A stretch of DNA of 63,985 bases, counting the filler, from Hausera hauseri (taxonomy: Eukaryota), in NCBI GenBank assembly GCA_046269625.1. It is 11 parts of 11 records of this genome, joined end to end, with 100 filler letters (N's around TTAATTAATTAA, not from the genome) between each part and the next. Parts side by side here need not be neighbours in the genome. Positions count along the whole stretch, not along the records: positions 15,800 to 21,784 come from JBJURY010158200.1; positions 21,885 to 26,646 come from JBJURY010445913.1; 9 more parts are not named here. One strand, 5' to 3'. Shown one piece after another: positions 1,813 through 45,607 of this stretch (the stretch's first letter is position 1; each line of letters opens with the position of its first letter). The notes under the pieces were generated by a model, which worked only from the letters and a program-made list of their open reading frames with translations, did not search any database and was not told the DNA's origin. The translations under genes were made by a program, and so were the position numbers.

Positions 1813-1999
1813 AATGTTTAATTAAATTGGTTATTGTACTTCATGAAATTCGGTATTACATTTTCGTGTGCTCTGATAAGTGAAATCGAGGATTTGTGAA
1901 CGATTATGATACGATAAGAAGAAGTCGTCTTATTAAGAGAGAATTACGATTATTATTAATAAATATGAAAATACTTGGAATAAATTGTTACCATTTAAG

Positions 2000-2448
2000 G
2001 AAACGGAACCACAAACGAAAGTGAAGATAGGATGGAACCAGAAAAATGCCCTATCTGCCTCGAAGAGATAATGCAAGAAAAAACCACACTCCCATGCAAA
2101 CATAGCTATTGCAGTTCCTGCATTAACATTTGGTTGGGGGAGCACAACAATTGCCCCTGTTGTCGAAGAGACTGTACTTTCTGCTGGGTGTGCTCCAAAT
2201 TAATAGCCGAGGACTTGGCCACCCTATCGTGCAGACATATGTTTTGTCAGTTGTGTATTCTGGAATATTTGGCGTGCTGCCGATTATGCCCCTACTGCTT
2301 GGAGACAGTGGATTTTTACACCACAGAAGGGGTGATTACCTATCTGAATTTCGATGGACAATCCTCTATAGAGTTGACAATTGACGAAGATGACGGCAGT
2401 TGGCCGGAAGCATGGCGAAATCCGCAACCCTTTACAATATTAGATTAA
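2000..2448 (+). CDS. Tandem double C3HC4 RING-finger protein
   Basis: CPIC..CKH..CSSC..CPCC followed by CWVC..CRH..CQLC..CPYC. ATG at 2032; acceptor AG at 1998-1999; AATAAA at 2459-2464. Confidence 0.9.
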
Positions 2449-2500
2449 TTAAATTGTCAATAAAATTATGTGTAACAAATTGTTTATTTATTTTCTTAAG

Positions 2501-2808
2501 GTTTACCCTGTACTATGAATTCATCAACTATTCTGAGTCACGGGTTCCCGGCATTTTATCAGACCGATGAAATAAATGCATATACGATATATAATCCATG
2601 TGGAAATTTTACCCCAGTGGGAGCCCAGTGCACAATCTGCCTAAATGACTATTCCATAGACCCAGTGGAGTTAGTTCCCTGTAGGCATCAGTTTTGTAAG
2701 AAGTGCCTGAGAGAATGGTTCTCTATGAGAGCCTCATGCCCAGTATGCCGTACAAATAACAAACTATTTCGATATAAACATGCTTACTTTACGATAAAAA
2801 ATTTATGA
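2501..2808 (+). CDS. C3HC4 RING-finger protein
   Basis: CTIC..PCRHQFCKKCLREW..CPVCR. ATG at 2515; acceptor ttttcttaAG at 2499-2500; AATAAA at 2808-2813 overlaps the stop. Confidence 0.9.
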
Positions 2809-2843
2809 ATAAAAGTGTTTTGTTTGATTGAGTTACATTTTAG

Positions 2844-4066
2844 CTGAAAGACAAAAAATGAAAAAGGTTCAATTCCAAACTCCCCGATATTGCGAATATA
2901 CCAGACCAATGCAACCCAATACGATACAGTACATTCTATGTTATCAGAATAGACAATTCGGACCAGCATCATTCATTAAAAGAAGAGTAAGCTACTCTAA
3001 AATGACAGTGTCAGATAATTCAATGAGAAACACACAGAATAGGAAAATATCGTTCTTGGAATATCCTAATTTACCTGTTCCGGGAGAATTAGCTCAATCA
3101 TATGCTAATGCAGGATTATTTCGGACCACAACGGGACAGATAAAATGTTTATACTGTCAAGGAGAATTCCAATACGAACAACTAAGAAATAGACCGAAAG
3201 AACAACATAAGAAACTACGTGCCACCTGTCCCTACCTACTAGATGTGGATGTAAGCAATATACCACTCATCGATGTATTTACTAAGAAGCCTGACCTGGA
3301 TCCGGACACTAAGTATGACGAAATAATATCTACACAGATAGTCTATCCAACTGATAATATAGTAGAACAAAATATACAATCGACTTTAGACACAGTACAA
3401 AATAGAAAATTAACTTTTCTAGGAAATAAGAAAATGAGGTATTTAGCCCGACAAGGATTGATATCAATATTCAAGGAAGGAGTACAATATGTTAAATGTA
3501 CAAAATGTTTTAGAGAAACATATTGGTTAGAAAAAATCGATCAGCGATGCCCGGCAGTACTACACACCAATAAATGCGAGTACTCAATACATAAAGTATC
3601 TGATAATAATGCCAAAAAGCAATGTAGAATACAATTTAACACAGGAAAATTATATGAATGTTATCAAGATAGTCCTGTCGCCATATCAGTAATATCAAGA
3701 CACCCTACCAAGCGAGAAAACATATTACAATATATCAAACATCAGACAGAAACTCAGTCCGATTGGTCGCCAAATGTATTCGACCTATGTCAGAATCTGA
3801 ATTTTATTGATCCAGAAAAGGAAAGAGAACCTGAGCAAAATATTCTTGACAATTTCTATCTTCGCGATTTGGAGTGTGTAATCTGTTATACGAATGTGGC
3901 ACAAGTCATCTTCTTACCTTGTGGACACTTGAAAACTTGTGAGAGTTGTTCAAACCAAACGACAAACTGTCCGGTTTGTAGGAGTATCATAGAGAGACGA
4001 GTGACGTATTTTCAGTTTTCAGAAGAAATTAGCGAAATAACTTTGGCAAATTTGGACCTTGACTAA
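2844..4066 (+). CDS. iap: Inhibitor-of-apoptosis-like protein (BIR, degenerate BIR, C-terminal RING), single exon
   Basis: BIR1: RKISF..YP...LAQSYANAG...CLYC-x16-H-x6-C (canonical spacing). BIR2-like: RKLTF...LARQG...CTKC...H...C. IAP-type RING: CVIC...FLPCGH..CESC...CPVCR. Acceptor AG at 2842-2843; AATAAA at 4088-4093. Confidence 0.88.
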
Positions 4067-8983: not shown

Positions 8984-9083
8984 NNNNNNNNNNNNNNNNN
9001 NNNNNNNNNNNNNNNNNNNNNNNNNNNTTAATTAATTAANNNNNNNNNNNNNNNNNNNNNNNNNNNNNNNNNNNNNNNNNNNN

Positions 9084-10650
9084 GGATGCAACGTTTTTCT
9101 TCTACGTTGATGGGTACTTCTCTCTTTTCACATTCATAGGTTAGCAATACTTCGCCCGTACCTCGACCGAAGACTCCTTCTCTCATGGGAATTATTGGAG
9201 AAGCTAATTCTGGGTTTGCATATATAAGAGCCATTTTAGTTTTCATTATTTCGGTATCCAATTTGCAGTCATTCATTATCATTTTATGATATAATTCCGT
9301 TATTCCAACTTGTCCTTTATCGTAGAAGTAATCGTCTCTACTTTTCAGATAATCTTCAATTCGAACATCCTGCGTTTCCAATTTATAGGTTTTTGCGTTT
9401 ATTTCTGTTTCGGCTACGAAGAACGCTTTATAGTTTGTAGAGAACATTACTACATCGCAACGAGTCATCATTTCTTTTTTTATAAATTTCAGCCCATGTG
9501 GATCTGAGATTAATATAGTAGGTGTAGGGTGTTCTGATACATTTTCGCATGTCCTTGAGTTAGTTTCTGATTTATCCACGTATCGTTTTCCGGTAGTTTC
9601 ATTAAACTTTAGCTCCTTAATTTTGATGAAATTACAGCTTCTTCCAGAGGGAGGTTCCAGTATTATAACCGAACTTCTAAAAGTACGTGTTCCTTCTTGT
9701 AAATGACATTTTTGATTCTCAGTGTATAGCTTAGTGACGCTATGGAACATTACCTTCTGTGATCGCATTTCTGATTCGTAGAAATCCACAACTACTACGT
9801 TTGGCTCTATTCTTTTTCCGGTATCGTATTCTGCTCCATTACAATGTCCGCTATGCATATTTAGTCTTCCAGCCACTACTTTGTATGCTCTGATTATCTT
9901 ACCTGGTTGCATTTCTATTTGCATGCTGTCCCATTGTACCCTTCCGTTCTCTTTGGCTTGTTTGCAGTGCTGACGTTCTAAGTTCATTGGAATTAGTGGG
10001 GTAGTTGGCTTAATTATGGAGGAATGTCCGTGTATTAGGCAGCAATGGAAAATTCTGCGGGATCGTCTCAACATGCACTCCATTCCGTCTAACGATATCA
10101 GTTCTTGTTGTTGATACAGGAAATAACTTTTCTCTCTTGTTTTTAGTTTGTATGGTCTTGCATCCTCGCATATTTCTAGATCCATTAAGGAATATCTCTG
10201 TCCTAATTTAAACTTATCGCAATCATGGACGGTTACAGCGCCTATATGCTTTATTAGCATCATCAAGGTTAGCAAGCTAATCAGCCAGTTTGATTCATTC
10301 TTCCGACTTCCAACGTCTGACGTTGTCAGGCTACGTAACATATCGTCGAGTTTATTGTTGCTTCGTTTGTCTTCTTCTTTGTCAAATAGTCTTGTCCAAT
10401 TTACTTCGCAAGGCATTCTTTTTGCTGCTCTCCGTGCTAAGCTTATAGCCCGATTGATTTCACTCTCTCGATTAGGATTTATTTTGATAGCTAAGTATAG
10501 CAGTACTTTTCTCAATTCTTCATTCGTGTTTTCTACCATAATCTTTTCTATTACTGTCTCGTCGGTTAAGTTACTTTTTGATATTTTGAAACGTGAACTT
10601 CTCATCATTTTGGCTGCATCGAAAATTATCTTTTCTTTGTCATCCAGCAC
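9084..10650 (-). CDS. env: Chuvirus-like envelope glycoprotein of an LTR element (3'-truncated by contig end), preceded by ~120 aa of non-glycoprotein sequence
   Basis: Internal signal-like segment WLISLLTLMMLIKHIGA, then VHDC..YSLMDLEIC, LYQ..C..R..FHC..HGHSSI, GHCNGAEY and LYHKMIMNDCKL..NP...GEVLLTYEC. This Cys/motif pattern matches chuvirus-type G proteins as I recall them. Confidence 0.8.
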
Positions 10651-10656
10651 ATCTCC

Positions 10657-15699: not shown

Positions 15700-16006
15700 N
15701 NNNNNNNNNNNNNNNNNNNNNNNNNNNNNNNNNNNNNNNNNNNTTAATTAATTAANNNNNNNNNNNNNNNNNNNNNNNNNNNNNNNNNNNNNNNNNNNNT
15801 AAATTACATATAATTAGTGTAAATAAATTTTATCGTTATGTTTTATATTAAGAATGAAAATGGAGTCCTAATATTGATTCACCAACTTTTTATGACGCAT
15901 TGGCGTCTTACCTGATTGCAAATCAAATGTATCATATTTTTTCCAATCAAACAGCTATGCCAAATAACCTAAAGTGTGAGAAACTCCAACTCTATCCCAG
16001 ACAAAT

Positions 16007-16885
16007 GTGTATGCAACAAACATCAACCGATATCACCGATTCATTTTTCCAATGATTCTTACCGACCAGCAACGAAAATTGCATATCATTGCCATTCATC
16101 TCACCAATGGCAAAATAACTGTCAATATCAACTATAATGATCCTATATTTGACATCAATCACGAATTACTCGATAACTTTAGTGTGATTACCACAATCCC
16201 GCCTGTGGACATATTGTCTTTTACCATTTCTTCTATAACCAACTGTATATACGTTGTTGAAATAATCCAACCAAAGTTAATATACACCATCCACAATGAG
16301 GACTATGGCCAACTGATTCATATACACAAACCACTCTTACCAGTAAATAAATACTCTTTAACACCAGAAGTATTATCACTATCAGACTTAGAATACCTAT
16401 TCACCTTCGACTCCTATAATTACGTCACGACTCAACCTAATCCGACAACTATTAATCAAACCAATATTGATATCGCTATACTAGACTATAAAGGTGAAAT
16501 TTTATTACAGCAACAAATGTACCCCAGACATAAAGTCATCGACTGGTGAACACCCTTTACAGGCATAACAGACGATCTCACCCTAAACAAAATTGATAAC
16601 GAAGACTTCTTACCCCTTATACAAGATATGCTGAAGCATAAATTCATTATAACAATGCAACTTAATCTACTCTTATGCTCATTGAAGCTACCTATCACTG
16701 CAAATTTCTCAACAGACAAAGTACTCATGATTCGTTTAAGTAAGCAATTACTGCATACCACCATCATTCCTACGTATACATCACCGTTAGTTCAAACCCA
16801 TCTACTTAGACAACTGTATTACTACTTACCGAATTCATTTTATATTGAAGACACTGATACTTGTATAGATCTTAAAGCAATTTAA
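16007..16885 (+). pseudogene. DEDDh (REX/ISG20-like) exonuclease-like ORF with one internal TGA
   Basis: ORFs 16007-16549 and 16628-16885 share a frame. IAILDYKGEILL...YPRHKVIDW*TPFTGIT...IQDMLKHKFII aligns by eye to REX4-type VSIVN..GEVVYD.YVKP...VTDYRT..SGI...LLKGRILVGH. Catalytic acidic residues appear mostly lost. Confidence 0.6.
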
Positions 16886-16925
16886 TTAAATCTCAATTAA
16901 TTCTACTTATTTTCAAATTTCCCAG

Positions 16926-17476
16926 AATGTATGGAATTCCGAGTAATCCGCAGAGTCGTATACACACTTACGCCCTGCTTGCACATGCTATATTCATATT
17001 GTATAGATACATCCCAATCCCAGGCAAACCCTATGCCATATTGCCCAATTTGTAAATATGAAATTATGTATTGCATCCAGCATAATGCATATCCATCTGA
17101 TGCTGACCAATCCTTACTGGATGCCAAAACCTTTGAGATTATCAAACCTACAGACCACATTACATATTGCTATACCTGGGATGTGTCAACCCCTTTTTCC
17201 ATCCTATATTTTCAGCTTCACACTTGTTGTTCATGTCACAAACCCATTAAAACAATCTACAAATTTAGTTCCTGTAATGCCGAATATTGTTCCCATTGTT
17301 ACCAAATGGAATCTCACCATCGACATCTGATATACAGCATATGTTATTTTTATCCACAGTTCATATATTATTACTTCCACCACCCTACAAGAGCTCTCCT
17401 TACTATTACTAACACGTTAATTCCTCAAATTACTTCCAACAAGATACTTCCGATTAGAGCAACAATCGTCAGCTAG
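16926..17476 (+). CDS. Degenerate RING/Cys-rich protein
   Basis: LTPCLHMLYSYC...YCPIC and CCSC...CNAEYCSHC; acceptor ttcccAG at 16924-16925. Confidence 0.5.
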
Positions 17477-18189
17477 AATTCAATTTCCCATCAATCGTTT
17501 TAGCCCATCCACAATAGTTAGACCACTACCAATTACATACCAAGCACCCTTACCCCACATAAACGTCACGTCTCTTCTACGTCAACCATCGTAAATACAG
17601 CATCCACGTTATCATCCTGAACAGATTATTAGACCATTACCTTCATTACCAGTACCTACACCTCCAATAACACCTATACCGACTATATCTTCTAGTCCTC
17701 CACTACCAGCATTATTACATCAAGATTGGTTTCCAGTTCTAAATAGATGTCCTATCCACCTCATTTACTATCTAGCCTCACCTGATCTTCGGGCATCATT
17801 GTAATCCTTTTCCATGATCAGCTTCTAACGTACGAATGTACTACATGTCTTACTCAACGTATACTGTGGCTCAATTTCAATGTAACCATAATCTATGTGC
17901 AACATGTTTCAAAAAACTTCGCTCCCAATTCCCTCAATCCATTGACCCGAACAATGCACTTCGAATAACCTTCCAGAACGGCATTTCATATCCATAATGC
18001 CGTCAACCATCAGTTTATTACGAGTGCTCATACACCTACGACAATCGTACCCAACGACTAAGCCAGTACATCAATCATCTGAACGATGCGACATTAACAG
18101 TCAAACGCAGAAATCTCAGTTACATCGATGTCAGTACCCAGAGCTATCCGGAGGACCGAATCCTCTTTTACAAGGGAGGGAGAAATAAC

Positions 18190-18625
18190 CACAGGGTTTT
18201 CGTTTATTCGTAGAATCTCCTTCGCTCTTTTGAATCCTTCTTCATTTGTCACTTTTCGAACAAATTTTGCTTCTAAGTTGCAAATATCATACCTTTGTTC
18301 CTCCCCATCTTTCTGTCTCCAATCTATTTCGATTCCAAAAGTCTTTTGTAGTTCCATTCCTCCTATTATTTCTGGTGATATGTCTATCAGTACTATGAAA
18401 GTTACGCGCTTCTGTACTACTTTGAGTTCCACATTTATGGACAGTTTACCCATGCGGTCTAGCGGACTACCATTTGCACAACGGAGTATAATATCTAATT
18501 TCTCCAGCTGGACATCTGTTAATCTTTCAAAAATCTTCCTACTCATCACGTTCACCCGTGCCCCTGTGTCCAATAGGCAGTCTTCCCAACTATTTTGTAC
18601 CTTTATTCTTTACCTGGCCGTCCTT
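18190..18625 (-). pseudogene. Retropepsin (Ty3/Gypsy aspartic protease) fragment
   Basis: CLLDTGARVNVMS...LRCANGSPL..MG...IIGGMELQKTFGI. Confidence 0.85.
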
Positions 18626-18639
18626 GTAGTTTATCGTAC

Positions 18640-21330
18640 GTGATACTCTTTTCCGTCAGTTCTTCCATGGAAAAAAGTGATCTTTTTGGAAAAAGTAACC
18701 CTTTGAACGCCCTTAGCTGTCTTTTTGATCTGACCTTTTACAACAGTTTTATGCATTTTGGACATAAGAGCTACAAATATCGAATTAATTATCTCATTCA
18801 CCTCGTCTTTGAATTTCCCAATGAACTTTTTGTTACATATTGAATAATTGGGATGTTCCTTCGGAAAATCTGAGGTATTCATGTGATGTGTCAATTGGAC
18901 AAAGTCCGTATAAATATCATCTGTATGGATCTGATAGATGGAACTATCAGTATCCTTATACATCAGCTTTATGGACTCGAACTTTGGGACCATGATGTCA
19001 TAGTGGAATTTGTACATCAAGGATTTTGACAGGTCCAATATTTCCATACCCACATATACAAGCTTGTTGAATTGCAAGGGTGTTTTCAGCATATGAATGT
19101 TGACTAATTTCTCCATATATATATGATGCTGCTGTGGAAATTGGGCTTGACAATGAGCTTCTTTGCCCACTTCCACTCAGAGAACAGTTCGATGTTGATC
19201 CTGTTGCGGATATTCTTCATGGTTTTGCCAAAAACGCTGTTGTTGTAAAGCTTAAACTGGTCCTTCTCAAAGTCGTTCTTGACATTTGTCCACAACTTCG
19301 TATTGAGATCTATGTTGAGCTGCAGTCAGTTAGACTGGCTGAACTGCATGGCCCGATGGATCTTAGTAATGCGGAGTCCATTCCTGACCGCCTGCTGGAG
19401 ATTTATGTAGAGGGCTACATACCTCTCCTTATTACCCATGTGGCAGAGCAGTTTTCTCTGCTTTCCATGGGGCGGAGCCTTGCTCTCAATGAGGAAATGC
19501 AGCTGTTTATGCCTTGTGTGGATAGAAGCTGGATATTTCCATATCTACCGCCAGCATGTATCCCGTATCTCCAGTGGGATCAAGGGCCAATATAGGGATG
19601 TTTTCAGGATGCTCGATCAACTTGAAGTTATCATATGGCAATGGGGCACTCATTGCCCATCCATATAGGATGTTGGCATCCAGATATGATATATATGAGG
19701 ATTCCTTGGATGGATAATACTGGGCAATATACTTGTTGTTGGCCTCACTATACCGCCGAATGGCCTGGCATATTCCACTCTAATGCTTCTCTCGATAATA
19801 AGGATCATGTCGTAACACTTATTGATCTGCAGCCTGACACCTGTATACCTCAGCATAGCTGACCAACTCATACCTTGCGCCTTAAAGAAGTGAGCCGGAT
19901 CCCAAGCATGGCTGTTTATCGCAACATCCCTGAAACTCTCAAAGACGTCCCTCAGAAGCAGCACATCCGTCTTGAGGTATATGTCAGTGTATTCACCTAA
20001 TGTTCGGCATTGAAATACATGCCAGACATTCTGAGCATGCTGGTAGTCCATATCGCTGATATCGCAATCAAAGAGGATATTGTAAAAGTCCTTTTTGGCC
20101 AGCAATGGGGTCTCATGCAGTGTTCCCATGATGTTATGTAGTCATAGGGAAACACGCCTTTCTTTTTGACGAGGTCAAATGTAGTGTGAAAGAACCGCTT
20201 CGTCTCCTTGAGTTCTCCTGCAGGGAGGTTCTTCACTAAACTGCCAAGTGAAGAGGACATGAACCGGAAAATGTCTACGAAGCGAAACCTGATTTTCCCA
20301 ACATGCTTGGTAAAGGTGATGTATGTTTTCTCACTATTAGGGATCACATCAATGTTTCCTTCAATGCTGTCCAATTCACGAACAATGAAATGGGAATCAT
20401 AACCACTGAGATTATGGAACACTACAGGCACATACGTACGTGTTTTGCAACGTAGATTGTAATTGTTGCATGTCGAGTCTCGATATTTGCCTGTAAAATG
20501 GCAATGATCCCTAACTTTATAATTATCCTTAGTGAATGATTTGGAGTACAAGTAACATGCTGTTGCCTTGCACCATTTTTCTTGCTTCTTCGACATGCTC
20601 ATTGTATCCTTATGCTGCTGCTGAATATCTAAAATCCTATGAGCCATATCTTCAAGTCCATTCATGAAATGAGCTGCCGCGCCTGGACCCCTGAATAGAT
20701 ATGGTTCACGCCCATTTCAGTATTGCATATCCGCAGGAGATAGAATTTATCATCCTCGTCCAATCACAAGATATTGTTGACATTTCCTAATTTTTTAACT
20801 TCATCTCTGGATGGAGGGAACTTGCTACATTGGAGATCATAGTTGTGTTACACATACTTATATAGCCAAATGCGTGAAACATGATTTTTATCCGTTACTA
20901 GTTTTGATAAAATGGCATACATGAAACAAATGTTGCCGTTATTATAGACATTGACATAGCTACCCAATCAGGGAGCTGAATATATGAACTGCCCCGCATT
21001 GTAGAGTACTTGTGAATATACACAATCAATCTCTTGACGGTTGCCAGAATCCATCCGTTCTTCTTAATATGGCTCTCCCCGGCTTCACGGATCAGCTTCT
21101 CGTGCGCCTCTTGCATACATTCTGCTATATTGGTGTTTTCCAATATGGGTCAATTTTTGGTTTTGAAGGCCCTCTTGGATTATGTTTCATCAACATTGAT
21201 GTATGTGGCCTCCAGTATCATATTCACCTTAAGGGCTTTGAGCTCAGTCATGTTGTCATGAAGAATTCCCCCTGTCTCGTCCTTTGTATATAAGAGGAAG
21301 TCTTGGTGGGTCGTTTAATCAGTTGCCTCA
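18640..21330 (-). pseudogene. Polinton/Maverick-type protein-primed DNA polymerase B, frameshifted
   Basis: RGSSYIQLPDW; VRDHCHFTGKYR; VVFHNLSGYDSHFI; KKGVFPYDY; YLKTDVLLL.DVFESFR; KLYNNSVFGKTM; YKDTDS; GKFKDE, spread over several frames. Confidence 0.9.
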
Positions 21331-22138
21331 ATGACATATCTGAGGCATTTTCTTTTTAATTCTGCTGCATCAACTGGCCGCTGTCTTTGGCTTTTTGATG
21401 GAGCCGGTGCGTTTGATGTGGCCGTGCCTGATGTAGCTACGCCTGATGCTGCTGCGCCTGATGCTGCTGCTTATGATGCTGCTACGCATCATGCGGTCGC
21501 GCGTTTCAATTTTTTAATATGCATTGAGCTGCTTCACCAGATCCAGCGGCATAATGCGAGACAGAATACTGTGAAGCATCAAACTGCGAAGCACATGCAT
21601 CAAAATTATCTTGCTCATTAAAGATGGCCTTTTTTGACTTTGATGCGAAGTGACTCAAATGATGTTTGTGATCATAACAGAACTGTATGTAATCTGCGCG
21701 GCATACCGTCTCACATCCTGGGCATATATAATAGAGGATCCTATTGAATTTGTATCCATAATAGCTCCTCATGGCATTATGACANNNNNNNNNNNNNNNN
21801 NNNNNNNNNNNNNNNNNNNNNNNNNNNNTTAATTAATTAANNNNNNNNNNNNNNNNNNNNNNNNNNNNNNNNNNNNNNNNNNNNTATTTTGACATATTTT
21901 AGGTTTGTCAAAAGAGAGGGAATTGAAGAGATTTTATTGATGATTAACTAAATGTTACATGTCGTTTTTAAGTTTAACTTTCTGATCATAGCAGGTTACA
22001 AGGGCAAATAGAAGAGAAATGGGTGAATGTGCCTGTGAGAAAAAAAAAATGTTATCTGAGAGAAAACTAATGATCTTTTTTTTTGTGTAAGCAGTTTTTT
22101 TTGTCTCAACAGCTTGATGTTTCCTTGGTCTTTGCTGT

Positions 22139-23446
22139 TTGGACGATCGAGGCCGCCCAGAGGACAACGTGGGAGGCGTTGGGGGCAAGCACCCGTCAGA
22201 TGGGGGTGCAGGACCTTTGGTCATCGTGTACCTCGTCGTAGGTGCCATGGTTCTGCTGGAGAACGCCTTCTCCCTGACACCAGGACAGGTGCTGATTAAG
22301 GTGGAACAAGAGAGTTTCAGCCTCTCCTGGGCAAGAAACAACAAAGTGAACAGAACACCAGGACATTTTTCATGTCCGGTCCGAAAGCAAATCCTGATGA
22401 AAGAAATAAAATGGCAAGCGGAGATGTGGACTAGTACGGAGTCCATATTACAAAATGTGACAAAAGCATTGAACTGGACAGTATGTACTTTGCAGGTTTT
22501 ATATGCACAGCTGCAAAAAGAACGGTTCCACAGGGTGGTGACGTCATCTAACCATCATGAGTGGCGTAAGCTCTGGAACATAACAAACGATCAATGGTTA
22601 ACGTTATCACCTGAACACACTATATGTGATGACAAAATGTGTAAAGGACATTGGACACAACATGTGGTAGAATGTAATACTACTGTATGTAGGTACCATG
22701 TTCTCCCTGTGATAACCATTCAAGGTTATTGGTTTCTACATGTGAAAGGTAATTGGTTTGAGCCACAGACAAACCTAACCTATGATTTAGACTTATGCGA
22801 GACAGCTGATAAAGGGGTGGTATGTATGCTACAAACAGGTCATGTTAACCCATGCTTAATTAAAGACGAAGTACTGTGTGATTGGACTTTTGAATCAGCT
22901 AGAGACATGCTATGGCAAATAGGCCCACACACTTTGTGCGTAGCAACAATAAAAAGTCACCCACAGTTACCATTTGTACCTTTCTCTGGATGTGTGTATG
23001 ATGTACACTTATGGAATTGGAACAATCAGACTTATAGGTTGACTAAATACAGCACCAAGGAACGTCTTTCAGAAGTGCAATGGCAGGTATTGCAGTTTCC
23101 TTGGCAGATTTCCCTAGATCAGTTCAAGTGCGCATTGAACGGATCTATGGAGCTAAAACGACTGATTGAGTCACATCAAAAGAATGTGTCCGACTTAACA
23201 GTGTCAACATACATCGCCCAGGGACAGGTCCTGCATGCGGCTAAACTCATTGAACAATCATCCGCACATCACTGGTGGGACATATTTTCAGGTATGTCCT
23301 CAACGGCGCGGAAGTATGTAGTCCCTCCTTTGCTTGCGCTTATTTTGTGTGTTGCAATATTAACTTTATGTAATTTAGGCACGTGTTTTTATATCAGGAG
23401 AGTTAAAAACAGGATTAACTGGAAAATTTATAATTCGGCCACTTAA
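22139..23446 (+). CDS. env: Envelope-like glycoprotein (ERV-S/snakehead-retrovirus-like), short
   Basis: N-terminal hydrophobic LVIVYLVVGAMVLL; Cys/Trp-rich ectodomain with N-glycosylation sequons; HHWWDIFSGMSSTA before the TM segment PLLALILCVAILTLCNLG. Track start is TTG; first ATG (GCCATGG) is near 22247. Confidence 0.8.
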   Translation: MDDRGRPEDNVGGVGGKHPSDGGAGPLVIVYLVVGAMVLLENAFSLTPGQVLIKVEQESFSLSWARNNKVNRTPGHFSCPVRKQILMKEIKWQAEMWTSTESILQNVTKALNWTVCTLQVLYAQLQKERFHRVVTSSNHHEWRKLWNITNDQWLTLSPEHTICDDKMCKGHWTQHVVECNTTVCRYHVLPVITIQGYWFLHVKGNWFEPQTNLTYDLDLCETADKGVVCMLQTGHVNPCLIKDEVLCDWTFESARDMLWQIGPHTLCVATIKSHPQLPFVPFSGCVYDVHLWNWNNQTYRLTKYSTKERLSEVQWQVLQFPWQISLDQFKCALNGSMELKRLIESHQKNVSDLTVSTYIAQGQVLHAAKLIEQSSAHHWWDIFSGMSSTARKYVVPPLLALILCVAILTLCNLGTCFYIRRVKNRINWKIYNSAT

Positions 23447-23447
23447 T

Positions 23448-23693
23448 ATGAAAGTACGAATTTATATTACTGACGGCCCTTATGGTCTTGAAAAAACAGA
23501 AATTACTGTAGAACCTGAAATACATCCAGACACATTGGAGGTTGAGCATTTTGCTCATGGATGGTATTATTTTAGGCAAACAACTTATGAGACTCGAATA
23601 GATTTTTTGGGTGCGTTCGCGACAGAACTTCAGCACGTAGACGTAGCAAACCGCTTAGAGTTTAAACTAACTGGGTGGCATTTTCAAAATTAG
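23448..23693 (+). CDS. 81-aa putative retroviral accessory protein between env and the PPT
   Basis: Starts 1 nt after the env stop (TAA-T-ATG) and ends just before the PPT; intact; no family recognised. Confidence 0.6.
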   Translation: MKVRIYITDGPYGLEKTEITVEPEIHPDTLEVEHFAHGWYYFRQTTYETRIDFLGAFATELQHVDVANRLEFKLTGWHFQN

Positions 23694-23713
23694 CCAGAAA
23701 ACCAAGGGTGGAA

Positions 23714-24365
23714 TGAATTGATAAACACGTTTTTCAATATATATGTGTTAGTTTTCTGACTATATTTCAAATGCTTTTGCTTAAATGTGCATGTGTCAGG
23801 TTTTATTCCAGCTGCCCTGGCCTTGACAGGTTTTTTTTCTCTTTCCCTGCCACTTAGGGAGTGTTTTGGGGGAGCTGAGAGGGGGGGGGAGAATGCAGCA
23901 GAAACTCTTCACACGAGATAGCAGCTTTTGGAAAAAGAAAACATGTTTTTGAGCCATCTCCTGAATGCCTGGGAGCAAAACTTGGCCCGTCTTGCGCCTC
24001 ACGCAATTCTGAGAGTTGGCGTAAGCATGCTTTTTTTTGGTAAGGGTGGGGGGAGCTGAGGTATAAAAAACACATGTTCAGTTTGAAAAAACGGAGTCTT
24101 TTGGAACCTTTCGATCGGGGTGTCTAAAACTGTTAATGTGGACCTCATTTCAACTGTGTGGCTCTCCGGTTGGTGTCAAAAGGTGAGGTTATTGTTATGC
24201 ATTAACTGATGTGAGCTATGTACATGTGTGCAAATGCTTTTGCTGGCTTTTATCTGTGGCGGAAATAAATGACACTATCATTTCTAGCAGATTAAGTCTT
24301 GTGTCCTGTCATCATTGTGCCGATTCTTTCCGATCCTGTTATTATTAAAAGAATTTCACAGAACA
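23714..24365 (+). mobile_element. LTR
   Basis: Begins TG after PPT-like GAAAACCAAGGGTGGAA; TATAAAA at 24062-24068; AATAAA at 24264-24269; ends CA (24358-24365, exact end uncertain) before the PBS. Confidence 0.8.
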
Positions 24366-24370
24366 TTAAT

Positions 24371-24388
24371 TGGCGTCACGAACAGGAT
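24371..24388 (+). promoter_or_regulatory. Primer-binding site, tRNA-Ser(CGA)
   Basis: TGGCGTCACGAACAGGAT is the complement of the vertebrate tRNA-Ser(CGA) 3' end ...ATCCTGTTCGTGACGCCA; it lies 18 nt before the gag ATG. Confidence 0.85.
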
Positions 24389-24406
24389 TAAAGAAAGAAC
24401 TGCACA

Positions 24407-26233
24407 ATGCCTTTTTTTAAGAAAAAAGAACAGACGGGGCAGTCGGATGAGAAACCGAGTGAAGTTGTGCCTGGTTGGGGGCAGTCTCCCTATCAGTTGA
24501 TAGCGTTGTGTTTGAGAGGTGCGGGCCGGCAGCCTGAACCTTGGGACGATTCTCGAGACGTGAACAGTCCAGAGGATGTTTTAACAGTGCTACAGCAGAT
24601 TGAAGTAGCAAAGAAAACACCAGTGTCTGGCTTGCGACGCCGTATGTGGGTATGTGCGACCGCATGGAAAAAGTTACACGAAGAGTGTCAGAAAAATCAA
24701 ACACAAGCTCTGCAGGATAAAAATGCGCTCCAGGAAGCGCAAAGTGCCTGCTTGTTGAACAAACAGCATATTCAGCTCCTGTCCTCACAACTCGAAAGGA
24801 TGAGTAAAGTGGCGGAGGGTGCAGTTGAGCAAGTGTCTCGATTAAAACGAGAAAAATTCAGGAAAAAGAAACGAGATGTTTCACCGAAACGAGTCAGGGC
24901 GTTTGTTGCTCAGCTAGATGCTGGATGGGATCCGTCGAGGTGGGACGGAAACATCTGGGGCGAAGAGGAAGGTGAGGAAATGGATGATGGCTGGGCAGAG
25001 GAAGAGCATGCGCCTGTTGTGACCACTAAGAAAAATGTGAAACCTGTTAGAAGACGGAGGAAAGAACAGAATGTGTTGCCAGATATGAGGCAGGAAAGGA
25101 GAGATGTGAATAACGTACCTATTGTGGATATGGAAGGAAATCCAATATGGGACATGGTCCCGCAGCAACAGCCTCAGGCAGAGTTAAAAGTAATAACAGA
25201 GGATTATACTCAAGAAGAAGTTGCTTATTTGTCTAAAAGATATAAGCAGTTGCCGGGTGAGCCTCTTGATGCTTGGCTGGTGAGGCTGCTGGACGAGGGA
25301 GCTGTCCAGGTGGAGGTAGATGTGGGAGATGGAATGTCTTTTGCTGGTTTGTCCACTAACCCAAGCATAAATACAAACTACCGTGCAGAAATCCGGGCTA
25401 TGGCTCCTAACACCGCAAACAACTTGTTTCAGGTCTATGCTGATTCTGTTTTACAAATGTATCCGGGAACTTCTGACTGGCCTGAGATAAAAGGCAATTG
25501 GTTAACATTGAAAGAGTGTAATGCTCTATTGACACGCATGTGTATGAGGGAAGCTGTGTCTCTGCGGGCAGGGCATGACTACCTGGCACTGGAAGTCCCC
25601 AAATCGGTGAGAGACCACATTATTCAGACCGCACCTGTTCATTATCGATCCGCTCTGCTAGCTGTGATAATGGGAGCACCTCAGGTTCCTGCTTTTGAAA
25701 TGAGAGAGCGAATCATGGAGCTGAGTACGCTCGGCGAGTGGGGCCCAGACAGATCAGAACAGCGAGAAAGGTTTCAGAGTCAACCACAGGCTCGCGGGCC
25801 CAGCAGGGACGGTGGTAATAAACAGGGACCACCGCGAGCTGCCTATTGGCGAGCTTTGATACAATCAGGAGTGGCCCCAAAAGACATCGATGGTCTGCCT
25901 ACTGAAGAGTTAAAGGCCAGATGTCAGAGGAAAGGGCTCCAGGTGCATTGTGCTGGGTTTGACATGACTGGGCTCACGCGAGCTCTCTCAGATGTGCTCA
26001 GATCCGCTTCAGCTCCGGTCGCTCCTAAATCTGAGCAGCAGTGGGTGTTTCACCGACAGGGAAGCAGGCAGAAAGATGGTGATGAGTCAGAGGAGGGAGA
26101 AGAATCCTCCACTGATGAGGTGCAGCAGGTCAGAGTTGTAAAGCAGAAGCATAAGGGGAAGAAAAACAAACCTAAGAAAGAACACAGAAACAGACTTTAC
26201 CCTGACCTTGATGACTTGTTGAGCTTCGAATAG
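24407..26233 (+). CDS. gag: Class III (ERV-L/ERV-S-like) Gag, intact 608 aa
   Basis: PGW..SPYQLIA N-terminus, coiled coil, WDP..WDGNIW, and DYTQEEVAYLSKRYKQLPGEPLDAWLVRLLDEGA (ERV-L-type capsid motif); no CCHC knuckle. Confidence 0.85.
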   Translation: MPFFKKKEQTGQSDEKPSEVVPGWGQSPYQLIALCLRGAGRQPEPWDDSRDVNSPEDVLTVLQQIEVAKKTPVSGLRRRMWVCATAWKKLHEECQKNQTQALQDKNALQEAQSACLLNKQHIQLLSSQLERMSKVAEGAVEQVSRLKREKFRKKKRDVSPKRVRAFVAQLDAGWDPSRWDGNIWGEEEGEEMDDGWAEEEHAPVVTTKKNVKPVRRRRKEQNVLPDMRQERRDVNNVPIVDMEGNPIWDMVPQQQPQAELKVITEDYTQEEVAYLSKRYKQLPGEPLDAWLVRLLDEGAVQVEVDVGDGMSFAGLSTNPSINTNYRAEIRAMAPNTANNLFQVYADSVLQMYPGTSDWPEIKGNWLTLKECNALLTRMCMREAVSLRAGHDYLALEVPKSVRDHIIQTAPVHYRSALLAVIMGAPQVPAFEMRERIMELSTLGEWGPDRSEQRERFQSQPQARGPSRDGGNKQGPPRAAYWRALIQSGVAPKDIDGLPTEELKARCQRKGLQVHCAGFDMTGLTRALSDVLRSASAPVAPKSEQQWVFHRQGSRQKDGDESEEGEESSTDEVQQVRVVKQKHKGKKNKPKKEHRNRLYPDLDDLLSFE

Positions 26234-26460
26234 GGAGCAGGCAGAGCCCCGGAAATCAGGATTGCTAAAAATAGAAATGTGCAGAAAGTGTTGGCCCTTG
26301 TAGACACCGGGGCGGAAGCCACACTTATTCATGGCAATCCGAATAAAATAAAAGGAGCAGTGGTTCCCCTCTCAGGCTTGGGAGGAGACATGATTTTTGG
26401 AAAAACTTTGACTTTAAAATAGATAACATGCCTGTGAAGACATTTTATGTACTAGTGACC
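26234..26460 (+). pseudogene. pro: Protease fragment in frame after the gag amber stop; rest of pol absent
   Basis: TAG-GGA... reads GAGRAPEIRIAKNRNVQKVLALVDTGAEATLIHGNP...LSGLGG to a TAG at 26420-26422. A shifted frame continues KIDNMPVKTFYVLV, then AT-rich non-coding DNA follows. Confidence 0.85.
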
Positions 26461-26746
26461 CATCCTTGTAAATATGCAAATCAGATGTTCACAATGAAAT
26501 GTTTAGAAATATCCTGTTGGGAAAATAGATGCTAAATCTTTATAATAGATGTCAAAATCCCTTTTGTTTTATTTTGACATATTTTAGGTTTGTCAAAAGA
26601 GAGGGAATTGAAGAGATTTTATTGATGATTAACTAAATGTTACATGNNNNNNNNNNNNNNNNNNNNNNNNNNNNNNNNNNNNNNNNNNNNTTAATTAATT
26701 AANNNNNNNNNNNNNNNNNNNNNNNNNNNNNNNNNNNNNNNNNNNN

Positions 26747-36827: not shown

Positions 36828-37838
36828 ATGTTCATGAATACTGTGGAATCAAATATGATACGAAACATTCAAAATCCAACGAATAAATTTGTAAAATTGA
36901 AGACCCTCGGAAATGGCGCACAAGGAACAGTATTGAAAGTTCGGGATAAAACAACTTACAATATTTATGCCATGAAAATATTTCATTCCAATAAAGATGA
37001 AGAATTCGTCTTAGATTGTATCAAACGTGAAATAAGAATATTACAAAATCTCCATCATGAAAATATTGTTAATATGATTGATATGCATATTGGTGATGGC
37101 TTATGTAACACTTATTCATTGAATGACGTGTTTATCTTGTTTGAATATTGCACAACAGATTTATATTATGAAATTTATGAGAATGGTGAGACATTGACAA
37201 TAAGTAAGAAACAGCAATACATGAAGGAAATGATTGCGGGAGTTGAATATATCCATAGAATGGGATTTATACATCGAGATTTAAAGCCAGAAAACATATT
37301 GATTGGAATTGGTGGGCAAATTAAAATAGCCGATTTTGGCTGGGCTACAAAAGTAAGACAAGAAGAAAACGCAAAATATACACCAAAAGTAGTGACGATA
37401 TTGTATAGACCTCCTGATATTTTGTTGTATGATCCATTTTATACAACCGCAGTAGATGTTTGGAGTCTCGGATGTATATTTGTTGAATTATGGTCATTAG
37501 AGGCATTATTTACGGGTAGGACCGAAATTCAGCAGTTACTGCTAATCCTTGATATTTGTGGAGGAATCAATTATCCTCGAGGAAACGAGTTGGTCGAGCA
37601 ATTAAACATTAAAATTGAACCAACAAAATCGATTTTGTCAAGTATTTTGAAAATGCGTGTACCTGATGTCAAATGCAGACAATTGATTGAAAATATGTTG
37701 AAGGTTAATCCAGACGAACGAACTATTTTGCAAGATGTTACTGACTTTTTTGACACAGATGACTATCAAGAAATTCAAGTCTGTCGAGAATTTGAAAATT
37801 TTAATCTGAAATGCAAAGATTGGACAGATTGTTCGTAA
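36828..37838 (+). CDS. Divergent intronless cyclin-dependent kinase (CDK9/10/11/12-like)
   Basis: LGNGAQGTV, YAMK, KREIRIL, FEYC, HRDLKPEN, DFG, YTPKVVTILYRPPDILL, DVWSLGCIF, LFTGRTEIQQL. Confidence 0.9.
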   Translation: MFMNTVESNMIRNIQNPTNKFVKLKTLGNGAQGTVLKVRDKTTYNIYAMKIFHSNKDEEFVLDCIKREIRILQNLHHENIVNMIDMHIGDGLCNTYSLNDVFILFEYCTTDLYYEIYENGETLTISKKQQYMKEMIAGVEYIHRMGFIHRDLKPENILIGIGGQIKIADFGWATKVRQEENAKYTPKVVTILYRPPDILLYDPFYTTAVDVWSLGCIFVELWSLEALFTGRTEIQQLLLILDICGGINYPRGNELVEQLNIKIEPTKSILSSILKMRVPDVKCRQLIENMLKVNPDERTILQDVTDFFDTDDYQEIQVCREFENFNLKCKDWTDCS

Positions 37839-44916: not shown

Positions 44917-45375
44917 TTAGTGATCAGTCATATGCCACGCCCCTTCCATCCGCCAGACGCTGAAGGCGTAGCTAAGTCTCTCGTGGGCCATGTAACTGCA
45001 GCTCGAGGGGAAATACTTCATCTCCGCCTCATCACTTCTCAGAATCTGGAACAGAAAGTCGATGTATCTACACGCCAACTTCAGTGTCTGGATCTTACTG
45101 AGCTTGTCTGAGGGCAAAGTCGGGATGATTTTCCTCAGCTGGGAAAAAGCTTCATTTAATGACTCTGTTCTTTGCCGTTCTCGAACGTTAGCTAGGCACC
45201 GCTGCGCTTGAAGTTCCTCGGCGGACTGAGGACTTTTTCTTCTTGCTTTTCTAGCGATATCGCTGCTGCTGCCATGTGCTGAGTCTGACTTGAACTGTCT
45301 CTTTCTGGAAGTATAGTGCTCGCCTCTAATGCCGTCTCCACAGCTGTCTTCTGAGGAACAAGATCGCGGGAACTC
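44917..45375 (-). CDS. twist: Twist-family bHLH transcription factor (main exon; start not resolved)
   Basis: [51 protein letters not shown] and the WR motif [16 protein letters not shown]; acceptor ctctttccacAG at 45377-45376. Confidence 0.95.
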
Positions 45376-45607
45376 CTGTGGAAAGAGGTAAAACAATAAG
45401 AGGTTAACAAACCTGGATAATCTAATATTTTCATGTAGTCAGGTATATTTTCCCTATGTAAAATATGCTGCATTCATATGATGAACGTCTTTATATACAT
45501 ATACACACATGGTGAACACACATCATGTGCCAAACTTAGTATTTCAACCTTCTTGCATATGTGGTTCCCCACTGGTCCGGTACTGTCCAATCACGTTAAT
45601 TTTGATG

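Follow-up and report, generated by a model that had tools for sequence, protein, structure and literature searches.

A pol-deleted, probably ERV-L-like endogenous retrovirus with an open gag and a broken env in the Hausera hauseri assembly

How a retroviral element that lacks a polymerase gene could have amplified, and whether the apparent circle formed by its contig is real, are the questions raised by contig C445913 of the Hausera hauseri assembly GCA_046269625.1 (G000). The contig lies in a window of 63,985 nt, made up of 11 joined contigs, and all coordinates are positions along this window. G000 is a fragmented assembly of 869 Mb in 909,086 contigs. Related loci, which are contigs of G000, are labelled L0xx, database protein homologues P00xx and public sequencing runs X1 to X4. 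It is concluded that C445913 probably is a copy of a pol-deleted, ERV-L-like (class III) endogenous retrovirus (ERV) of fish with an open gag and a broken env, which would have amplified recently with Pol supplied by a helper.

Loss of pol and the apparent circle

Read from the long terminal repeat (LTR), the order is LTR, primer-binding site (PBS), gag, amber stop, protease remnant, integrase (IN) scrap and a piece of a foreign repeat, followed by the end of pol, a likely splice acceptor, a Cys/His open reading frame (ORF), env, an 81-aa ORF and the polypurine tract (PPT). The parts that concern the loss of pol are:

21885..26646, + strand: whole contig G000:C445913, 4,762 bp with N spacers on both sides; a circularly permuted element of the order LTR, gag, deleted pol, deleted env and accessory frames
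26449..26508, + strand: integrase-core remnant, 20 codons; 70% over 20 aa to P0040 378-397, E 2e-7
26500..26646, + strand: 5' part of a foreign LTR-like repeat, beginning at its TG; 96% to L010 941-1086; depth 118,000-169,000 in X2-X4
21885..22013, + strand: 3' part of the foreign LTR-like repeat; 97% to L013 and 88% to L010; depth 76,000-135,000 in X2-X4
22011..22070, + strand: 3' end of pol, the last 19 codons (22011-22067) and the stop; 74% over 19 aa to L012, E 2e-6

The protease remnant joins the integrase scrap, whose match P0040 carries an rve domain, directly at 26449, and reverse transcriptase (RT), RNase H and the IN N-terminus are absent. The joint between protease and IN is spanned, with one mismatch, by a contig of X1 (26152-26525). 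The original prediction of a pol-less element is thus borne out, as the RT/RNase H deletion is real, lies inside the contig and is bridged independently in X1. A deletion private to this copy, which had been named as a possible objection, does not agree with the presence of both the protease-IN and the env junctions in X1. In L012 a dUTPase-bearing pol end sits directly before env, and the L012 contig ends there. Pol was deleted in all four related G000 contigs showing that interval (L021, L022, L023 and L026), with breakpoints that differ from those of C445913 and that are shared by L022 and L026.

The contig ends overlap exactly by 77 bp (21885-21961 = 26570-26646), as had been described, and among the 11 contigs of the window this was seen for C445913 alone. 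In G000 the exact 77-mer was found at three places, the two ends of C445913 and the start of C83139 (L013), which continues past it into the remainder of the foreign repeat and then into non-coding DNA. The foreign repeat piece totals 199 bp, running from 26500 through the overlap to 22013, and its first bases double as the last codons of the integrase remnant. Since the 77-mer is shared with C83139 and the repeat is very deep, the contig is cut at a repeat branch point; since the overlap lies inside a foreign LTR-like repeat of very high copy, the circle most likely is an assembly loop and not an episome. The overlap therefore stands, but the circular form inferred from it does not, an assembly loop closed within the repeat being the best explanation. 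A circular episome was rejected as the principal interpretation because the overlap falls in a repeat node common to another contig. With a single LTR and no flank junction, collapse, tandem array and circle are inseparable in this assembly, and the circular contig probably arose when an assembly with k=77 merged two nearly identical LTRs into one and broke the path within the repeat. Of the interval between gag and env, the original prediction had recognized the protease remnant and had missed the foreign repeat around the 77-mer, the integrase remnant and the last pol codons.

The signals required in cis were found as follows:

23714..24365 (3' end approximate), + strand: LTR, one copy in the assembly, with TATA at 24062 and AATAAA at 24264
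23696..23713, + strand: PPT-like stretch; a comparable tract stands ahead of TG in L017, L025 and L026
24371..24388, + strand: PBS; the identical 18-mer occurs at 6 places in G000
22090..22112, + strand: pyrimidine tract with AG, a likely splice acceptor for env and the accessory frames; the region is homologous in L012, L021, L022, L023 and L026

One LTR, the PBS and the PPT are present in the contig as predicted, that is, the cis signals of a non-autonomous ERV are all retained. The PBS presumably matches tRNA-Ser(CGA); a search for a tRNA gene matching it found none.

The foreign LTR-like repeat is also represented by L010 (G000:C797579) 941-1590 and L013 1-546 and is extremely deep in X2-X4. 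Its TG start stands behind a purine tract and its CA end ahead of a PBS-like sequence, which we take to be that of tRNA-Trp. A 306-codon open frame in L010 (1-918) abuts the foreign LTR directly; it has the look of a bacterial lipoprotein by eye and no Pfam match, and L010 may be chimeric, a contaminant or an unusual element.

Gag, envelope and accessory frames

24407..26233, + strand: gag, 608 aa, ending in an amber stop that shares its frame with the protease; coiled coil at the N-terminus and capsid-like domain, CCHC knuckle absent
26234..26450, + strand: protease remnant; active-site DTG kept, truncated, frame breaking after 62 codons

Gag is open over 608 aa, as predicted, and was of full length compared with all six relatives examined. 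Its translation contains no CCHC zinc knuckle. A Pfam search with gag gave no match, PDB sequence and profile searches gave nothing meaningful, and Foldseek with the Gag model gave no match at E<=0.001. The predicted model (predicted local distance difference test, pLDDT, 76) combined a long coiled coil with a capsid-like region, and its top VIA match was the foamy virus capsid 8ozk_A (root-mean-square deviation 4.4, 152 aligned, residues 269-449), with a weak Z of 6.2 that tied with coiled coils. The protease remnant, which had also been noted before, holds 62 codons in the same frame as gag behind the amber stop and matches Pfam RVP with an E of 0.001, under the cut-off.

Relatives of Gag point to the class III lineage that had been proposed. 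Among 86 gag homologues found, 10 were looked up; those with names come from teleosts, amphibians and a bird, and three close clusters from killifish and pipefish are named Fv1-like or Gag, the Fv1-like ones with E values of 1e-89 to 1e-103. A caecilian gag homologue carries protease, RT, RNase H, IN and dUTPase. A dUTPase at the 3' end of pol was found in the lineage (L012, P0070), and C445913 keeps just the 19 codons behind it. Named env homologues come from teleosts and sharks, and from the sources of the gag and env homologues a fish is the likely host. Fv1-like Gag homologues together with relatives that carry pol domains from protease to dUTPase fit an ERV-L-like class III lineage. From this homology, the lineage would fall near ERV-L in class III (clade Huo), yet with an envelope.

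22118..23446, + strand: env frame, 442 codons from stop to stop; 197 codons lost in frame at about 22388-22391
22117..22299, + strand: Arg-rich Cys/His ORF, 60 aa, a likely accessory gene in a different frame from env, whose 5' end it overlaps
23448..23693, + strand: 81-aa accessory ORF directly behind env; ORFs stand at the same position in L022, L025 (two) and L026

Env had been described as intact over 435 aa. The frame is indeed open, but it is not intact. Compared with the 671-codon frame of L022, it matches residues 42-120 and 318-670, and residues 121-317 are missing. This loss of 197 codons removes most of the surface subunit (SU), the furin site and the fusion peptide, and the ectodomain and membrane anchor of the transmembrane subunit (TM) stay. 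The count of 435 aa begins at a TTG, and the first in-frame ATG (22247) falls within a signal-like hydrophobic stretch; a start codon ahead of this segment is present in L012 and L022 and absent in C445913. The missing start codon, furin site and fusion peptide led to the rejection of an intact env; with the latter two gone, the protein is predicted not to mediate membrane fusion. The furin and WYD motifs, absent in C445913, were found in 14 of 22 database env homologues, the other eight of which may simply not cover the region.

An X1 contig (22288-22813, depth 11) bridges the env deletion junction. The main X4 contig ends at 22390, with 22391-22483 uncovered in X4, and no contig bridging the deletion was found in X2 or X3 among the matches listed. 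As the junction is bridged solely in X1, the env defect is shown just for the C445913 genome and X1. On L022, the SU segment missing from C445913 has a depth of 0-15 in X2-X4, as against 146-694 for the leader that both share; since mapping to the TM region of L022 is poor as well, this gap in SU depth is no proof that the amplified copies lack SU.

No match was obtained in a Pfam search of env, and nothing meaningful in PDB sequence and profile searches. The full-length env homologue P0016 resembles PF00523 fusion proteins with an Atlas language-model feature score of 0.95, a likeness for which Pfam and PDB profile searches gave no supporting match. A fold search with a low-confidence env model (pLDDT 49) gave feline foamy Env at E 0.014, and VIA gave only helices. 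The L022 frame itself (G000:C679996, 1087-3102) is an open env of 671 codons that retains the furin site and the fusion peptide, in a copy whose pol is deleted. Its depth is 50-120 in X1 compared with about 4-11 in X2 and X4, so that this sister subfamily seems to be amplified in a different species.

The Cys/His ORF at the env 5' end had been overlooked in the original prediction, whose gag and 81-aa ORF were both recovered. Its pattern, C-x4-H-x3-C-x2-C-H, was found in all six loci examined, of which one is truncated where its contig ends; the C445913 copy lacks one of the Cys residues. Loci with this ORF include L012, L021, L022, L023 and L026, and the gene models P0006 and P0010 carry the motif N-terminally, fused to Env. 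The ORF probably is an unannotated regulatory accessory gene. The 81-aa ORF resembles that of L022 (32% over 41 aa, E 3e-4) and had no Pfam match and no Atlas family (Atlas peak 0.76). Since an 88-bp skip at 23576-23665 was observed in three of four runs, this ORF is broken in many copies of the relatives.

Sequence differences across the runs numbered 141, and 40 of them were listed, 32 lying inside the three ORFs. Among those listed, gag showed 14 synonymous and 6 non-synonymous differences, where 28% synonymous would be expected (p 1e-4), env 5 of each (p 0.11), and the 81-aa ORF 2 synonymous and none non-synonymous.

Depth in public runs and competing explanations

A near-identical stretch was found in 23 public runs from 19 studies, and 11 runs hold at least half of its words. 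None of the runs is recorded as RNA; X22 and X23 are putative RNA runs. Depth and variants were compared in four runs, X1 to X4. A putative host exon of L022 (1-615, minus strand), represented by a few short contigs at a depth of 2.5-6.2, and of 2.8-6.2 in X2-X4, was used as the baseline. This stretch is an open frame with KPKPNL-type repeats and no Pfam match, and presumably is BDP1-like. Contig 15800-21784 was rejected as a baseline, being a repeat family.

Single long contigs of the element reached a depth of 190-680 in X2-X4, roughly 35-200-fold over the baseline, a rough guide since contig depth is no copy number. A depth comparison had been proposed as a check, against the genome average; against the exon baseline, values of that order were reached in three of the four runs. 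Long unbranched contigs at high depth, for instance one of 858 bp at depth 262 in X2, suggest near-identical young copies. In X2, the LTR intervals 23762-23774 and 24238-24300 were about 2.5 times as deep as env, which favours two-LTR proviruses with some solo LTRs; at position 23996 LTR and env had about the same depth in X2 and X4, which does not favour them. An in-frame skip of 783 bp through the capsid region of gag was observed in all four runs, and the variant lacking the capsid region likewise occurs at high depth. A further joint leads from gag 25830 to 22017, skipping protease and pol (depth 179 in X2 and 74 in X4). Between closely related runs, depth differs about 30-fold.

The bridged RT/RNase H deletion in X1 and the high depth of the three other runs speak for a young, helper-dependent element that uses Pol in trans. 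That it keeps its structural genes holds for gag and not for env, from which the cleavage site and the fusion peptide are gone; the capsid-less variant is also abundant. In such a life cycle, the LTR would drive transcription, the PBS and PPT would serve for priming, and the RNA would be packaged in Gag shells, its own or, for capsid-less variants, those of the helper, whose enzymes would reverse-transcribe and integrate it. The stacked deletions probably arose by template switching during reverse transcription, as probably did the foreign LTR piece, which is joined at a short shared sequence.

Several observations weigh against a recently amplified, helper-dependent class III element. An autonomous helper for the lineage was not found in the fragmented G000: the closest RT was 45% identical and broken (best 150 of 5,046 candidates), and the closest IN was 47% identical and broken (best 150 of 7,545 candidates). 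Neither a second LTR copy or LTR-flank junction nor a target-site duplication was found in G000. The high depth comes from X2-X4 and not from the copy number of the source genome, and the closest run, X1, is about 1-6-fold over a baseline made of few short contigs of a host stretch that is itself inferred. Env may differ in the amplified copies, as the X4 contig stops at 22390 and the deletion is bridged only in X1. The synonymous excess in gag may predate the loss of pol. Finally, the class III placement is based on homology of Gag and on pol content and not on an RT tree, RT being deleted here.

A more far-reaching interpretation, which is held only tentatively, is that C445913 belongs to a swarm of nested deletion variants (of pol, protease, capsid and fusion parts) of a hitherto undescribed ERV-L-like retrovirus that is still colonizing a fish radiation, with selection keeping gag and a fusion-less, membrane-anchored Env in frame for the host or the element. 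If so, the step from an enveloped virus to an ERV-L/MaLR-like retrotransposon would have been caught under way, from a parent with a paramyxovirus-F/foamy-type envelope and two accessory genes, and the retention of Gag and Env would be likened to the Gag of Bik and ERNI or to an Env decoy.

Rather improbable is a decaying defective provirus of single or low copy in this genome, with amplification confined to sister variants in other species. The low depth in X1 would agree with this, as would a contig that is unbranched at variant sites known from elsewhere, the broken protease frame and an env without start and fusion parts; however, the protease-IN and env junctions are common to X1 and hence not private, and a single provirus with two LTRs normally leaves flank junctions, of which none were found in the assembly.

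We consider it improbable that the unit is truly circular or tandem, either as a one-LTR circle or as a head-to-tail, LTR-sharing array grown by unequal crossing-over. The unbroken run of env, LTR and gag in one contig, with the LTR once and no flank contigs found, and the equal depths at 23996 would be expected of such a unit, but the cut is already explained by the repeat node common to C83139, and the LTR excess in X2 at the two other intervals speaks against it.

There is little likelihood of a locus or family used by the host, in which Gag would be kept for a developmental role, as for Bik and ENS-1/ERNI, or the fusion-less Env would act as a receptor-blocking decoy. Synonymous differences are in excess in gag, the deletions in env and gag preserve the frame, and a precedent exists (PMC12067270; this and the other publications are cited here from excerpts). 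Against this, an in-frame deletion has a one-in-three chance anyway and depth varies about 30-fold among species; the co-opted gag/env locus that had been suggested is not supported in view of the multi-copy-like depth, the abundant capsid-less variants and the env ratio of 5:5.

An assembly shortcut that skipped a full pol between protease and env is hardly credible and largely ruled out: the contig ends fall exactly in a high-copy repeat inside the pol interval and no contig spans the 199-bp piece, but RT and RNase H are already gone upstream of the repeat at a joint bridged in X1, so that no more than the dUTPase and part of IN could have been skipped unseen, and L013, the other contig starting with the 77-mer, runs on into repeat and non-coding DNA.

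Neighbouring sequences and known systems

Other parts of the window and of G000 contain unrelated repeats and frames. The neighbouring contig (15800-21784) is a degraded Polinton/Maverick-like repeat with frames that by eye are DNA polymerase B-like and protease-like, present in dozens of copies at about 72-89% identity, and the entire contig at 26747-33317 is a degenerate, CACGTG-rich satellite with units of 22/32/54/76 bp. A 542-codon frame at 9028-10656 (minus strand), adjoining gag-like frames, is viral-glycoprotein-like and by eye chuvirus-like; to the eye it resembles a glycoprotein captured by an LTR retroelement. An intronless, AT-rich protein kinase (Pfam Pkinase; 36828-37838) and a frame that by eye is a twist-like basic helix-loop-helix (44917-45438) could stem from a non-fish component of the assembly, which would then be mixed. 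The stretch 1999-4066 and L043, L044, L046, L051 and L060 contain RING/IAP-like frames and, next to an ATPase-like frame, numerous dUTPase genes; by their sequences these loci would form a large viral or Polinton-like family in the assembly (150 dUTPase matches). L047 (G000:C903512) carries a betaretrovirus-like gag-dUTPase-protease-RT with CCHC knuckles. Class II ERVs are stated to be absent from teleosts in the excerpt of PMC4977317, so L047 is likely contamination or worth a look.

Literature searches gave no description of the lineage, which a supplement or a Repbase entry may hold. Its parent unites ERV-L-type gag and dUTPase-bearing pol with a putatively F-like envelope and a pair of conserved accessory ORFs. 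The depth spread of about 30-fold and the abundant deletion variants would provide a natural series on enveloped class III viruses turning into intracellular parasites, and the same runs would bear on whether Gag is retained for host use. To our knowledge, ERV-L has no env and MaLR also lacks it.

Like the C445913 lineage, MuERV-L/HERV-L of clade Huo have a Gag without zinc finger, Fv1-like homologues and a dUTPase in pol, and an in-frame stop between gag and pol is known from SnRV-like viruses (PMC6001957, PMC2717909). Unlike ERV-L, the relatives of C445913 have a full env, possibly of the paramyxovirus-F/foamy type, and accessory ORFs. Lokiretroviruses are fish retroviruses as well, with a PF00523-like Env (PMC7947760) that the Env of these relatives may resemble, but C445913 lacks their smc gene and its Gag homologues point to Fv1/ERV-L; the excerpt of the lokiretrovirus account mentions no dUTPase (PMC7947760), in contrast to the relatives of C445913. 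The excerpt of bioRxiv 10.1101/2021.11.23.469661 covers gamma-type Env only.

ERVs amplify by three standard routes, one of which is complementation in trans (PMC10435555); it has been suggested for foamy-like ERVs of fish (PMC5512871). Mouse IAP IΔ1, ETn/MusD and MaLR are deleted or non-autonomous ERVs mobilized in trans, as is proposed for C445913; IAP and ETn differ in belonging to class II, and MaLR, of class III, in being mammalian (PMC1331978). Zebrafish Bik-1/Bik-2 (BHIKHARI, endogenous lokiretroviruses) share with C445913 the fish host, the recent amplification that is probable for C445913, an intact gag, the absence of pol from every copy and a partner element that was not identified, whereas they fall in the lokiretrovirus clade and Bik-2 lacks both pol and env (PMC12067270); the relatives of C445913 differ from Bik in their ERV-L-type pol ending in a dUTPase. 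Another close precedent is chicken ENS-1, a non-autonomous variant of ENS-3/Soprano and sister to ERV-L, which likewise is pol-less and about 4.7 kb long, has a Gag with coiled coil and capsid and is related to ERV-L, and which, as is probable for C445913, is young and multi-copy and varies in copy number between lineages (PMC12067270). Unlike ENS-1, C445913 has an env remnant and two accessory ORFs, and the two are likened by features and not by sequence kinship. As pol-less ERVs that keep gag are known in mouse, chicken and zebrafish, the lifestyle itself is not new, and C445913 stands for a genuine and young ERV family without pol, of a sort already known, in a little-studied group of viruses.

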